Source of the DNA: Eledone cirrhosa
Lineage: Eukaryota
NCBI GenBank assembly: GCA_964016885.1
Contig: OZ024758.1
Span: forward strand, 18,662,001 to 18,726,000
DNA length: 64,000 nucleotides
Direction: 5' to 3'
The translations under genes were made by a program, and so were the position numbers. How positions within the stretch are numbered: the first letter of the stretch is position 1; each line of letters opens with the position of its first letter. Below are positions 1 through 58,374 of the stretch, one piece after another. The notes beneath the pieces are model-generated. The model was not told the DNA's origin and searched no databases. It saw only the letters and a list, made by a program, of their open reading frames with translations.

Positions 1-2096
1 TTATAAGATTTAATGTGTGCTTCAATTCATGTGTAGGTATTTTCTTTTGCTGTGTGTGTGTTTGTGTGCGTCTGTGATTTTAAAGAGATTCTATTTCACT
101 GCTGAGACATATTTGAATGTAAATCGAAGAAGCCGTATGTGATAGTAAAGTCATTGTTGAATGATGAATTTGTATCATAAAAAAAAGCCAATGTTGGTAA
201 TATTATGCTTAAGGACGATATATCTATATTTGTTATCCTGTAACGAAAATAAAATAATGAATGGAAGTATTAAAACATATATATTATATCTGTAATTTTA
301 TCTTAAAAACATTGTACAGCTATTGTCATTGTTGCTACTGCTTTTTCATATATACATAAGACTTACACATTCTGTAACAGTGTGTTAAAGATGTTTAGAT
401 GAAGACAACGTAAAAGTAAATAAACTATGCGTTGGATGCAAGATAAAAGAATAGTTGAGAGAGAAATAATCATCTTACTCGCCATAGAATGTTACTTTAC
501 ATCAACATAACTGTTTTGTGGATATCTTCATAAACATTGATAAATGTAAGCATTATATATATATATATATATATATATATATATATATATATATATATAT
601 ATATATATATAGAGAGAGAGAGAGAGAGAGAGAGAGAGAGAGAGAGAGATACCTAGGTATATCAATTCATGTATAGATATATATAAATATATATACATAT
701 ACGTATGTGTGTTGTGTGAATTAAATAATAGATGATATTCGCATGGTATTTAGGATACATCAGAGAGGGGACTTAAAAATAACAATATTTCATATTGAAA
801 TATTTCAATAGTCTCTCACATGTGTATATATTAGGCAATATAATTCGAAATTTCTCTTCCCTGACTAATAAACATGTTTTGGGGAATCCTTTTGTATTCT
901 AATTCAGAAAAATGTGATAATATATATATTAACATTACGAAAAACATATAGCCAACCCAGGTTGATAGTGTTCATATATATGTGCGAGATTTATATATTT
1001 TTTCAAAGAGGAGGAAATATAAAGGAGTTTTATTCTGGAATCAGTAATACACCCAGTTTAACTATGGAACCCCAGAGTCGTATAGAGCAACAGATATTCG
1101 TCATATATATCTAATAACATGTTAATATGACATGCAAAATTATTAACATAAATGATAATTGTAGGTGAGAAAAGAAAACATGAAGTAAACATTGTGAGTT
1201 TTATATAAGTTGTTTTAACTAGCACAGTCAATGTTGGGATGCAATTAGTAAATGCATGAACCTATGTACACAGATTCAATGTTATTTTACATGCATGTGT
1301 AAAATATGTATCAGATGTACCTATGTCAAATATCAGGGATATATCTGATGAACAAATAAGAAATGATGATCCCACGTTCCTGAAAAATATTTTCTAAGTT
1401 TAGAAAGTTTCCTTTCCATGAATAATTAATGGGATTTAAAAAGAGAAAATATATTGAAGGTAAGGTATGCTGTATCCTCATCTGGAATAATGTATGTCTA
1501 TAGATAGAACGGTAATAAAGAAAACTACATGAACAAATTTAGCAATCAGATTTTATGTATAAAATGAATGAAATAAAAATCCAGAGTCGTAAACAATGCT
1601 GTTAAACTTACAAGACGAAATGTGAAGAAATATCATGTTGAGCGCAATGGGTTTTAAGCGAATACACTGAATCTAATTATATACAATTTCTTATTTTTTC
1701 CAGCTTGCTACGTATATCTCCCTTATTCTCTAAGATTAAATATTTACACACACACGCCCATATATATATATATATATATATATATATATATATATATATA
1801 TATATATATATATATATATATATATATATATATATAAACGTAGATATACATATATATTCATACACAAAAGTACATATATTTATTTACATATACCCATATA
1901 TTCATACACAAACGTACATATGTATATTTATATATACCCATATATTCATACACAAACGTACACATGTATATTTACATATACACATATATTCATACACAAA
2001 CGTACATATGTATAATAAACATTTTGAAGACCCAGTCGCTATAGAATAGAATACCTCACGTATTACAATTTGAGATTCTCGATAAAAGTAAGGGAA

Positions 2097-2139
2097 GTAA
2101 TCTACGCGTTTCATTCTTGTTAGAAATCTTCAGGATTAC
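2097..2139 (-). ncRNA. Type I hammerhead ribozyme (retrozyme unit 1)
   Basis: Minus strand: GUAAUC-CUGAAGA-UUUC UAACAA GAAU-GAA-ACGCGU-A/GAUUAC. Stem I is 6 bp and extends via 2076-2090 pairing with 2148-2162. Stem III is the palindrome ACGCGU. Confidence 0.9.
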
Positions 2140-2408
2140 ATATCCAATACTTTTATCGAGAACGACACAGCTAGAGACTTATAGAATACTTAGCTGTGTA
2201 CAGGAACTGGTTTGATAGAGCGGTAACCGGTCCGGCAGAAATTAGAATTTGGATTTAATGCTCTGAAATAGCGATATATATGTGAAGACAAACATAGAAT
2301 ATTCGAAAATATTCTGTATGTTTATAATAAACATTTTGAAGACCCAATCGCTATAGAATAGAATACGTCACGTATTACAATTTGAGATTCTCGATAAAAG
2401 TAAGGGAA

Positions 2409-2451
2409 GTAATCTACGCGTTTCATTCTTGTTAGAAATCTTCAGGATTAC
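2409..2451 (-). ncRNA. Type I hammerhead ribozyme (retrozyme unit 2)
   Basis: Identical motif 312 bp downstream. Confidence 0.9.
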
Positions 2452-2720
2452 ATATCCAATACTTTTATCGAGAACGACACAGCTAGAGACTTATAGAATA
2501 CTGAGCTGTGTACAGGAACTGGTTTGATAGAGCGGTAGCCGGTCCGGCAGAAATTAGAATTTGGATTTAATGCTCTGAAATAGCGATATATATGTGAAGA
2601 CAAACATAGAATATTCGAAAATATTCTGTATGTTTATAATAAACATTTTGAAGACCCAATCGCTATAGAATAGAATACGTCACGTATTACAATTTGAGAT
2701 TCTCGATAAAAGTAAGGGAA

Positions 2721-54680: not shown

Positions 54681-55874
54681 TATATATATATATATATATA
54701 TATATATATATATATATTATATATATATATATATATATATATATGTACTGTAGTATAAGTTTTGTTGAAATATCCAAGGATAAGAAAACTCAGTTCAAAG
54801 GACGAGTTAAGTAGAAATATTTACAACCTTGACATATAGAGGTACGTAATTTTCGTTGGATTATACACCTTAACTCATTCAGACTGTTATATAAAGGGTA
54901 AATGAGTTCGGGTGCAACATTCCTAAATAATTTCACGCACACACGCGCGTATATATTCCACCTGGTTTCTTTCTATCAAATTTCACTGACAAGGCATTGG
55001 TCATCACGGAGCTATAGCTATAGTAGAGGACGTCTATACTTCAATGCCTATATTATGATCACAAATTCCTGAACTGGAATAAATTATATTGCCGTGAGTG
55101 GTCTGATCGAATATAATTTATTTCATTTTGTAAACTCTTTAATAAATAGTTGTCTACGTTATACAATTTGTATAAGCATTGATCACATTTAGAATCAGTA
55201 ATTACACGTTAGAAAACTATCTTTAGAAATCCAGGTATATATGAATGAAGTGAAATATATGCAGTTTACATTAGCATTTTAATGAAAATTATTCCTTGCT
55301 GTGAAATGCTTGCAATAATTAAGAAATATCCTGGAGCGATTTTACAATTATTATTGTACATAGAACACCATATCTAATGTCTATGATTGAATAACGTAAT
55401 GTAGGTAAACTAGATTGAAAGTTAAAACGGAATCGAAGGGGCTTCAAATACATTTGTAAATGTATTTGTATATGCTGGTCGTTCCTACTGAGCAGTTTTC
55501 TATGCAACTTTTATTTATGCAAATCTGCGCTATATTTACATATTTCTAAGATAGTAATAGTTGTAGTCAGATAAGTTTGAATACAGGGCAAGATGTGATG
55601 CAATTTGAATTAAAGAACGCAGTGAAAATTTTAGAAATGTAGAAGTTTACATATATACGTAATATGATACATTGTCAGAAAATAGAGAAATATTACATCA
55701 CTATACTAAAATAGAATCAGTCTGATATATTTTATTAAAACTGGCAGAGGTAAGTGTCAATGCTAGAGTACAATGTGATATCAAAGTAACAAAGACCAGG
55801 CGGGTGTGATGTGAGCGAGAGTTTAGTACAACAGTATGCATGTTCGGCTTTTATATTTATATATATATATATAT

Positions 55875-56052
55875 AATTGTTTCTACTTCAGGCACAAGGC
55901 CAGAAAATACCCAGTACATTACTGGTACGTTATTTTATCGACCCCGTAACGATGAAAGGCAAAGTCATCCTCGGCGGGATTTGAACTCAGATCGTAAAGC
56001 GACGTAACTATACTGGAAAGCATGGCGTTCGGCCCTCTACAGATACTGCAAT
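55875..56052 (-). mobile_element. SINE family A
   Basis: Match to the family A consensus. Confidence 0.8.
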
Positions 56053-57281
56053 GTGTGTGTTTGTGTGTATTCATTAATTATAGGTCTGTGTTTATGTTTA
56101 TCATCTAATAGTTGTGACAAATTTATGTAGTAAATTACTGGAAGATATACGAATTAGGGGTCTATTTATTATATACCATGATGTCTTCTAGTCCTCTAGT
56201 TGAACATTCCTTTGAAGTCATGACGACATACAATGAAGCAACGATTATATATTTGTATTATTCGACGTTATATTGCACTGTATTATACACATCTCATCTG
56301 GTATCATTCTAAAAATAGAATTTGCATCCCGGCAAAATGAAACCTATATAATTTAATATCTTTAAAACATGTTTGTATTTAAAAATAAAAAGTATATCAG
56401 GTTAGAAATTGAGGAAATTATCTCAATAGATTAGCTAAATAAACAAAACATACAATTTGATTTGTAATAATCATGTTGGGAAATCAATCTAATTGCAGTT
56501 ATTTGTAACTAAAGAATTTTAAATTATGGTAATTGGATAGTTTCCTGCTTGAATGTTAGAGATGGGATTATTATTATACATTCTGATGAAAGCGGAAAAC
56601 AGGAAATTAGAAACGGAATACTTGTAAAGTATAGAAACGAAAGATATAATAATTGATCCATCTTATATCGCCCCAGAGTAAGAAAACATAATTATATATC
56701 ATAAATGTATAATAATTATTTCTTACATAACACTTACAAATAATGGTATTAAATATTAGGTTTATTTGGGGATTCATATTTTAGCGCATATGCTATAGGA
56801 ATACATAACTATACATATTTGCACGCAAGCTAACAATTTAGATATGCACACAGGTACACATACATTCATGAAACCACTGACACACACACACACCCACATA
56901 TATATATATATATATATATATATATATATATATATATATGTAAATAAATATTCATTAAACTAGGAAAGCATCGAGGATGTATTCAGCATATTCTCACAAA
57001 ATGGAATTCGTGTAAACAAAATGAGAGTGCTTCTGAAGAGGCTGTGAAATACCAGGAACGAAAACGATTAGCCGATGATCTTGCAGAAACTCAAGTAATA
57101 GCAAACCATGATATATTTTCTCAAGACAGCTCTATTACAGCCAGCCTATTATAAAAAAAGTATGTTGATAATTATACAGCAACTATGCACAACCCCAAAT
57201 TTAAACACACAAACAGGCGTGTATATATATATATATATATATATATATATATATTTATATATATATATATTTATATAATAT

Positions 57282-57490
57282 ATAGGAAAAGAGTCAAGAC
57301 ACCGACGTCTGAGCTCCGGCGGTTTCGACATCTAGATCCGAACTCATGTTCGGATCTAGCTGTCAAAACGGCCAGAGCTCAGCCGTCGGTTTCCTGGCTC
57401 TTTTCCTATTACCCAGTCTATTACCCTAAGTATGGAGTACTCTGGTGTGTTGTGGTGTACCTGGTTCCTTACCGCACTATCATTATTGTA
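57282..57490. mobile_element. Fold-back element (imperfect ~62-bp arms) carrying a hammerhead 3' half
   Basis: Arms span 57282-57409. (G/A)AA-ACGGC cagagcuca GCCGU-C forms stem III with a GUC site; the CUGANGA half is absent. Confidence 0.65.
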
Positions 57491-58374
57491 TATATATATA
57501 TATATATATATATATATATGAGGGAACTAAGAATCCGTGTTGCATCATATGCATATTTAATTGCGTATTACATATGTTTCACTGCCGATCAGCTTGAGGA
57601 ACGATCGATTAATGATCGATCCCGAATCTGGATTTGGAAGCTACTCTATAATTTCGACGTTATAACTGCCACATAACATGTACTAATCGAGTTGTTTGAG
57701 GTAATCAATGGATCGATAAGCTAAACATTATCGGCCAGAGTAAAATCCAAGAAACATATATATATTTATATAAGCGCCGAAACATCTATCATCTGTAGTA
57801 AACAGCTGATGAAGGGATACTTTTCTTCTCTTGTTTACGTCCCCGTTTACCTTCTAACACTTCGTTTCCAGTAACTACACCAGTAACCACACAGCCTACC
57901 TCTTTACTTATATATATATAAGTGTATGTGAGTATGTGTGTGTCTGTATTTGGCCTTACATATACAGCATGTAAAATATGTACTGTTAAAGGCTGGCAGA
58001 TCTAACGAATAAGAATACATCATTAGATCAATCGGGTTACAGTTTGCTAATATTGGAAATATTGATTTGATAGTAACATCTAAACGGTACGTTCTCATTC
58101 ACGCGTTAGGTTCAATGGTGAATACATGTGTTATACCGATAAGTAATATTTGTGTGGTTGTGTGTGGGAAAGTGTTTGAAAGGTTTTGTGGGAGTGAGGT
58201 TCCACTGCCGATTGCGGTGGTGCGATGGGATAATAATTATTTTATTATAGAATTCAATATCTTTCTCTCGCTCTGATCGAAGTACAAGATACCAGATTTC
58301 ATTCGCTTAACTAGTAGGTTGGAGCAAGGAAACGCTGTTTCCATTGGTCTTTTGATTGATGATACTATCAACCG

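Follow-up and report, generated by a model that had tools for sequence, protein, structure and literature searches.

Hammerhead motifs among (TA)n repeats of Eledone cirrhosa: assignment to Hydra-clade Penelope-like elements and tandem retrozymes, with an untemplated G at fold-back junctions

A 64,000-nucleotide (nt) stretch of the Eledone cirrhosa genome (assembly GCA_964016885.1, contig OZ024758.1, positions 18,662,001–18,726,000; here called the window) carries hammerhead ribozyme motifs of six families (designated A–F), a decayed Penelope-like element (PLE) and a long interspersed element (LINE) among (TA)n arrays (Table 1). A preliminary description of the window had read the hammerhead elements as unrelated, short, non-coding families, non-autonomous and mobilised by the resident PLE. 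Here four of the families were assigned to PLEs of the Hydra clade and two to tandem retrozymes, and an untemplated G was found at fold-back junctions of two families.

Hammerhead motifs in the window and in the genome

A CUGAnGA...GAAA...UH type I fold was present at 10 of the 10 coordinates where canonical cores had been proposed, and the proposed CAGAAGA-core variants were also found, with a further one on the plus strand (Table 1). The cores had helices I–III of a type I hammerhead, family D carrying C3-A4 for C3-U4. A strict descriptor returned seven canonical and two CAGAAGA sites in the window; for the shuffle control only sites with a Watson-Crick helix I of at least 4 bp (five of the seven canonical ones) were tallied, and these 5 compared with 0 in 200 local dinucleotide shuffles. 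With a relaxed descriptor, 11 sites were found in the 64 kb; in 100 block shuffles of 2-mers the mean was 0.04 and no shuffle had more than 1. The expected excess over shuffled sequence was borne out. For nine of these 11 sites, (TA)6 was no more than 200 nt away; the other two, both of family A, lay 297 and 526 nt from it, within a 44-bp minisatellite.

An Rfam scan of the window, which the preliminary description had put forward as a means of detection, gave no match at the gathering score, and no hammerhead was among the top 150 of 342 E-value matches, which were to TA-rich microRNA models. Folding energies of single motifs were mostly ordinary (z-scores between −1.14 and +1.13 for 8 of 9, and −2.25 for one). 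As Rfam was blind and the energies were mostly ordinary, the case rests on motif, recurrence and context.

Abundance was estimated from sixty evenly spaced 10-kb stretches of the 3.0-Gb genome. This sample contained 39 hammerhead motifs, and ten shuffles of it gave 0–2. The density of 65 per Mb corresponded to 1.4–2.7 × 10^5 hammerheads per genome, about 2 × 10^5 (a Poisson interval that ignores clustering); published counts stand at about 5,000 hammerheads in mussel, about 9,000 in Xenopus and as many as 120,000 in axolotl. The TA association was upheld in the same sample: 29 of the 39 motifs lay within 200 nt of (TA)6, against 12 of 76 matches of one short interspersed element (SINE; Fisher p = 1e-9), 4 of 13 matches of a second SINE and 21.6% of random positions. 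The window was richer than the sample, with 11 hammerheads where 4.2 were expected and (TA)n at 16% against 4%. The hammerhead motifs in TA repeats are real and genome-wide, and self-cleavage is predicted from their sequence.

Two classes of hammerhead element and a resident PLE fragment

Families B, C, D and E were identified from their sequences as 3′ pseudo-long terminal repeats (pLTRs) of autonomous Hydra-clade PLEs, present in the window as cut-short copies. Extension into PLE open reading frames (ORFs), which had been suggested as a check, was found for all four. For family E (3235 candidates genome-wide, the top 40 at 98% identity), locus L141 had the order pLTR, 895-aa ORF, 1.7-kb 3′ untranslated region (UTR), pLTR and (TA)n, and the last codons of the ORF differed between loci L141 and L143. 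For family C, a 739-aa ORF lay between two pLTRs 3.86 kb apart (L489); other ORF loci of this family were frameshifted (L490) or partial (L491). The family B tail ran into an ORF open for 484 aa up to the edge of locus L157 (its N-terminal part), and 7 of 30 copies anchored on a tail-only query shared at least 870 nt upstream. For family D, all 4 of the long copies examined had the C-terminal part of the ORF, with GIY-YIG, about 1.0–1.1 kb upstream; of the D ORF this part alone was seen. The elements had a single ORF between pLTRs, reverse transcriptase (RT) followed by C-terminal GIY-YIG, seen whole for E and C only.

The Hydra marks RWR and DKT were found in E, C and B and CxCx5C in E, C and the D fragments, without CCHH; the E, C and B proteins were 40–44% identical to one another. 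Hammerheads in the pLTRs and insertion into (TA)n also agreed with the Hydra clade. The pLTR-to-pLTR length, 4.74 kb in E and 3.86 kb in C, exceeded the “under 3 kb” of Hydra elements because of the long 3′ UTRs, and that rule is described as general, not strict. None of B, C, D and E was a non-coding tandem retrozyme unit, all four extending into 3′ UTR and ORF. The norm in family D was the CAGAAGA core (U4A) with a CUU cut triplet, in 19,013 exact 26-nt copies genome-wide. Between two family E ends at L142:3100–3730 (minus strand) lay a 208-aa open frame with a QACRG motif, which we take to be caspase-like. In the family E ORF (L141:1426–4113), RT and endonuclease were separated by an insert rich in Asn and Ser, about 150 aa long and resembling N-rich inserts of rotifer PLEs in the accessible part of PMC3846280.

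By the same kind of reading, only families A (312 bp) and F (323 bp) were classed as non-coding tandem retrozymes, with tandem units in the range of 150–450 bp, a type I hammerhead in each and no ORF. The description as unrelated short non-coding families was true for only these 2 of 6, and non-autonomous status fits A and F only, not the four families that reach Hydra ORFs. Family A (784 candidates) had full units 95–100% alike, arrays of up to 11 units and 931 exact 33-nt hammerheads in the genome. All 24 of its insertions compared outside the window had at least one fixed 3′ end and 16 had both, on head-to-head arms of one common haplotype; the 5′ ends were scattered. The fixed 3′ ends lay about 141 and 168 nt past the predicted cut; the window copy lacked both. 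In contigs from two unlabelled runs of one sample, which may be the assembly's own source, family A ends were joined to (AT)n. The core and helix II of family A closely matched those of Hydra family B. Family F (2016 candidates, about 93% identity) had a fixed end in 30 loci, and its inverted arms ended 31–43 nt short in 13 of 29. Both retrozymes show the two-ended anatomy of Penelope-type insertions, and it is likely that they were pasted by Penelope-type enzymes.

A tail motif, GCTAT-N-GA(A)GC-N-AAATCC, was common to A and F (2559–2590, minus; 33790–33829, plus) and to no other family among the loci compared; it offers a lead to a common partner. A family F copy fused to a Neptune-like ORF (L221) was rejected as the parent, since 0 of 14 other copies of that element continued into F within 550 nt, and it was taken as a chimera. 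The element itself (L221:381–1500) belonged to a GC-rich Neptune-like PLE family (2368 candidates, 85–91%) with a long C/A-rich 3′ UTR.

The PLE fragment reported for the window was confirmed by tblastn at 11121–12082. It resembled Neptune-type PLEs in its Cx4CxxC linker, the cysteines and histidines of its endonuclease and its TA target; it is decayed, and its clade was assigned by motif only. A Cx2-5CxxC linker and, at the C-terminus, GIY-YIG with CCHH were found in a related copy and by tblastn to the window, and Pfam recognised neither the window GIY-YIG nor the Hydra ORF. This family (3907 candidates) had 86–92% identity between copies, against 95–100% in A, B and E, and a longest open frame of 664 aa among 150 scored matches. 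It had its own 3′ end and its own U3-A8-type hammerhead (near 12480–12520, decayed in the window copy). The fragment is an old bystander, and the young families do not descend from it. Other Neptune-like copies begin at window position 11121, so that the hammerhead at 11054, which is B-like, was a separate insertion. An array of (TA)n at 12583–12625 interrupted the Neptune-like 3′ UTR where other copies were continuous.

Insertion ends, the junction G and its interpretation

Each of families A–F had two fixed 3′ ends, each followed by (TA)n, usually on opposite, head-to-head arms. They were 27 nt apart in A, about 39 nt in F, 61 nt in B, 74 nt in D, about 92 nt in C and 100 nt in E. Past the fixed end came (TA)n in 27 of 30 copies of E, 29 of 30 of B and 25 of 30 of D; the exceptions in E (three) and B (one) ran on as element sequence.

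In family B, 15 of the 30 tail-anchored copies, mostly fold-backs, began at −7 to +10 of the core, whereas the cleavage site (+39) was the start of none of the 30. In family E, one or two arms out of 30 ended near +32, by the cleavage site, and no run-off at the cleavage site was resolvable in family A. The family B hot spot was the A of CCAGATT, 30 nt downstream of TATAAATA. Genome-wide, 702 copies began at this A(−6) after a non-templated base, which was G in 87 of the first 100 listed; at control position −26 there were 49 copies, 10 of them with G (p = 1e-15 against A(−6)). G was present at 25 of 29 junction loci; at 17 of them the base could not have come from the inverted arm, and 16 of these had G. 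The sequence AATCT-C-N-G-AGATT, with G on both arms, was read at three junctions. In family D, 2445 copies began at A(−5), with G in 55 of 100 listed and at 20 of 28 junction loci; at internal position −2, G was found in 1 of 23. Fold-back arms of B and D stop at an initiator-like base 5–6 nt before the core and carry an untemplated G. Run-off is seen in families B and D only.

The extra G at these mirror-image junctions suggests that a single capped RNA was copied as far as its start by both of the broken strands. In the reading that we consider probable, the motifs are pLTR hammerheads of four Hydra-clade PLE families (B–E) together with two tandem retrozymes (A and F) that Penelope-type enzymes are likely to have pasted in, and the insertions arose by two-strand priming on sense RNA. 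The GIY-YIG domain would nick both strands of the (TA)n target, and the two 3′-OH ends would each prime reverse transcription of one common sense RNA, at different start sites. At L141, L157 and L489 the tail doubles as the 5′ leader of the ORF, so that an mRNA beginning in the upstream pLTR would contain two sets of start sites. Long copies, variably truncated, would result from priming at the 3′ set; priming at the 5′ set would run off at the capped end within about 60–150 nt, the cap being copied as the extra G, and two such short cDNAs, once joined, would form the hammerhead palindrome. The template RNA would be uncleaved. Family A arms cross many units without a stop point, as expected if the template were circular or multimeric. 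A fuller version of this reading, to which we give somewhat less than even chances, is that capped Hydra mRNA starts 5–6 nt before the hammerhead, that a paired RT, primed from the two nicked strands, copies the uncut RNA as far as the cap, and that the genome records this replication cycle base by base.

Several observations weigh against this interpretation. Position −8 of family D, intended as a negative control, failed, being a second G-rich start (552 copies; 16 of 21 junctions with G); this fits a second start and weakens the specificity of the test. For 12 of the 29 B junctions and 8 of the 28 in D, the inverted arm could itself be the source of the preceding base, and the majority of D copies (16,568) extend upstream past −5. 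In B, symmetric fold-backs are also seen at positions other than the start (−83/−80, −113/−113, −235/−234). A guessed family E start was rejected, having only 5 copies and 1 with G; as run-off is seen in B and D only, the inversions of E and C in the window would be ordinary truncations. For A and F, no autonomous partner was found among the loci compared, and the tails of A (27 nt) and F (about 39 nt) fall short of Hydra tails in length and do not have the Hydra tail motif. Eight of nine retrozymes tested elsewhere gave no cleavage (bioRxiv 10.64898/2026.07.22.740005, Li, Clavereau and Pollet 2026). Finally, an intact 930-aa LINE ORF with APE endonuclease and RT (23829–26618, minus strand; Pfam RVT_1 and Exo_endo_phos_2) lies between two long (TA)n arrays and is a second TA-associated retroelement.

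On the question of the enzyme, mobilisation of all families as non-autonomous ribozyme elements by the window PLE is very improbable: A and F are indeed tandem and non-coding with Penelope-type ends, and a Penelope fragment is present, but the extension of B, C, D and E into Hydra ORFs refutes it for four families, and the divergence, short frames and different 3′ end of the Neptune-like family speak against such a role. The proposed Penelope link was thereby kept through the Hydra ORFs joined to B–E and lost as regards the resident fragment as mobilising partner. That A and F owe their spread to recombination or to an APE-type LINE that targets TA, and not to Penelope enzymes, we consider rather unlikely; the intact LINE ORF and the lack of a partner Penelope for A and F among the loci compared would favour it, but two fixed 3′ ends on opposite head-to-head arms are a Penelope tail signature, and the core and helix II shared with family B point the same way.

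As to the palindromes, self-priming on an antisense template was favoured in the accessible discussion of PMC3846280, which left the question open, and snap-back of a single cDNA would have a similar outcome. The frequent ending of B arms at the same position at non-start sites, and the many D junctions at −2 that are clean microhomology joins, would agree with either. Neither leads one to expect an extra G before a sense initiator, on both arms and one base apart, nor arms that end at two different fixed 3′ sites, and we regard this explanation as unlikely; the junction G argues for a sense template over antisense self-priming. The G might instead be a product of splicing, if an exon further upstream ended in GAG and was joined to the AG that precedes helix I, or it might have been added without a template, as could happen at the end of any RNA. 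Both hot spots consist of a pyrimidine tract and AG, the intron of D. virilis Penelope ends at helix I (PMC4209133), and D −8 is G-rich too. This origin is nevertheless quite unlikely, as the sequence before the G is not that of a constant exon, the G is also present in D copies that start at −8 and so retain the end of the supposed intron, and other truncation points have G in only 10 of 49 and 1 of 23.

Other window features and relation to published systems

Half cores (GAAA, a palindrome and UH, with no CUGAnGA nearby) were found at 3016–3180, 17340–17480 and 57520–57680 in an abundant two-arm family; family G had 3126 candidates genome-wide. Half cores are listed for Naiad elements in the accessible text of PMC8557442. 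A hairpin motif, (A/G)CTC...T(T/C)GAG(T/C), was common to the tails of B, C, E and H, just past the tail-less end; in 600 kb of random sequence (L268–L321), about two dozen matches to it lay close to (TA)n. Minisatellites of 34 bp (14159–14520) and 23 bp (19005–19111) were unrelated to the hammerhead families.

Table 1. Features of the window (window coordinates)
Feature	Position	Strand	Remarks
Type I hammerhead cores	2133, 2445, 22002, 28611, 42438	−	core CUGAnGA/GAAA/UH
Type I hammerhead cores	29387, 33642, 41914	+	core CUGAnGA/GAAA/UH
Hammerhead core	22100	+	helix III mismatch
Hammerhead core	40698	−	weak helix I
CAGAAGA-core variants	21488−, 21503+, 29897+		
44-bp TA-rich minisatellite	1786–2014, 2760–2961		flanks family A
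Family A retrozyme	2011–2767	−	2.4 tandem 312-bp units; cores 2133, 2445; third at 2757, helix I cut
Family G, two-arm Penelope-type layout	3016–3180	+	half-core GAAA-CGCGCG-UC arm and inverted tail piece
Decayed B-related end	10982–11115	+	inverted tail piece; hammerhead with GAGA for GAAA; adjoins Penelope fragment
Decayed 5′-truncated Neptune-like Penelope element	11121–12805	+	RT C-terminus, Cx4CxxC linker, GIY-YIG; ends in (TA)n, then short second tail
G-related half-core copy	17340–17480	−	beside (TA)n
Family D tail-only fragment	20997–21076	+	
Decayed C-related fold-back	21158–21403		core TTGATGA
Family D fold-back, putative Hydra pLTR	21419–21492, 21495–21647		CAGAAGA core; inverted tail-less arm, then sense arm with 74-nt tail
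Family E fold-back, putative Hydra pLTR	21917–22040, 22039–22284		inverted arm, then sense arm with 100-nt tail
Family B tail-less arm	28552–28619	−	begins at inferred transcript start
Family C two-arm insertion, putative Hydra pLTR	29280–29494		inverted tail 29280–29356; sense hammerhead arm 29352–29487
Family D 5′-truncated tail-less copy with 3′ UTR	29602–29966	+	CAGAAGA core at 29897
Neptune-like family 3′ end	30037–30104	−	beside (TA)n
Family F retrozyme	33380–33829	+	1.4 tandem 323-bp units; core at 33642
C-related hammerhead arm	40612–40712	−	core at 40698; palindromic TACGTA loop
Family B fold-back, putative Hydra pLTR	41847–42041		tail-less inverted arm; sense arm from A(−6), G before, 61-nt tail
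Family C two-arm insertion	42332–42629		hammerhead arm minus strand, tail arm plus strand
Family H fold-back	57282–57484		Hydra-type tail motif; no hammerhead in window copy; related piece 54522–54678
Half motif after family H	57520–57680		

The thesis of the preliminary description is largely in print. Hammerheads in pLTRs, with solo and opposite-strand copies, have been published for truncated PLEs (PMC4209133); those reported here share the solo or opposite-strand pairs, an unpaired base after A9, a palindromic loop 3 and the U3-A8 variant, and differ in number (about 2 × 10^5 against 2,000–9,000) and in the U4-to-A core in about 19,000 exact copies. The U4A core was not found in the available portion of PMC3088659. 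Retrozymes as passengers of PLEs, or as originating from them, have also been proposed (bioRxiv 10.64898/2026.07.22.740005, and PMC7229834, Cervera and de la Pena 2020, in the part available). Metazoan non-LTR (long terminal repeat) retrozymes are like A and F in having tandem low-GC units with one type I hammerhead each and no ORF; in A and F, the insertion ends themselves carry the PLE two-site signature.

In vitro, lizard (Anolis) Poseidon uses two internal start sites that define a tail, cuts and extends both strands, and takes an uncleaved RNA as template (PMC11167929, Frangieh et al. 2024). A two-site tail is likewise found in B–F and A; Poseidon is of another clade, and that study does not treat inverted junctions, cap copying or retrozymes. 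An untemplated G is an accepted trace of cap copying in L1 and SVA, according to the accessible text of PMC3287187. The Hydra clade, one of the C-terminal EN+ PLEs, includes Hydra-1_Obim, an octopus PLE with a (TA)n target and a hammerhead (PMC8557442, Craig et al. 2021, in the sections available). The account given there agrees with B–E in RWx, DKT, CxCx5C, no CCHH, C-terminal GIY-YIG, canonical hammerhead and (TA)n insertion. Compared with that account, the N-termini of B–E differ by eye, which indicates different families; their length is 3.9–4.7 kb against less than 3 kb, the tails of B, D and E are 61–100 nt against the usual 30–40, and thousands of young copies are present here. Cap-marked run-off palindromes are not described in the same sections. 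A literature search covering few subscription journals found no paper on cap copying in PLEs or on such a hammerhead load. The links among hammerheads, TA repeats and retrozymes are in print; the untemplated G at B and D fold-back junctions was not found in print.

The formation of tandem and inverted PLE ends and the role of the hammerhead are named as open questions in the available parts of PMC8557442 and PMC3846280. Thousands of young insertions give base-level junction statistics, and these predict where the transcript starts, that its template form is capped and uncleaved, and that priming occurs twice; with the full-length ORFs of E and C, the published in vitro assay could put this to the test. 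The two-site anatomy of A and F constitutes direct genomic support for the proposed spread of animal retrozymes by Penelope enzymes. If the fuller version, with capped mRNA copied from both nicked strands to its cap, were true, it would explain the head-to-head palindromes of PLEs and overturn the antisense self-priming model; the ribozyme would sit where cutting removes the cap, the same machine would roll through retrozyme circles, and E. cirrhosa would have the most ribozyme-dense animal genome among the published counts compared (about 2 × 10^5 hammerheads, the U4A core in 19,000 copies).

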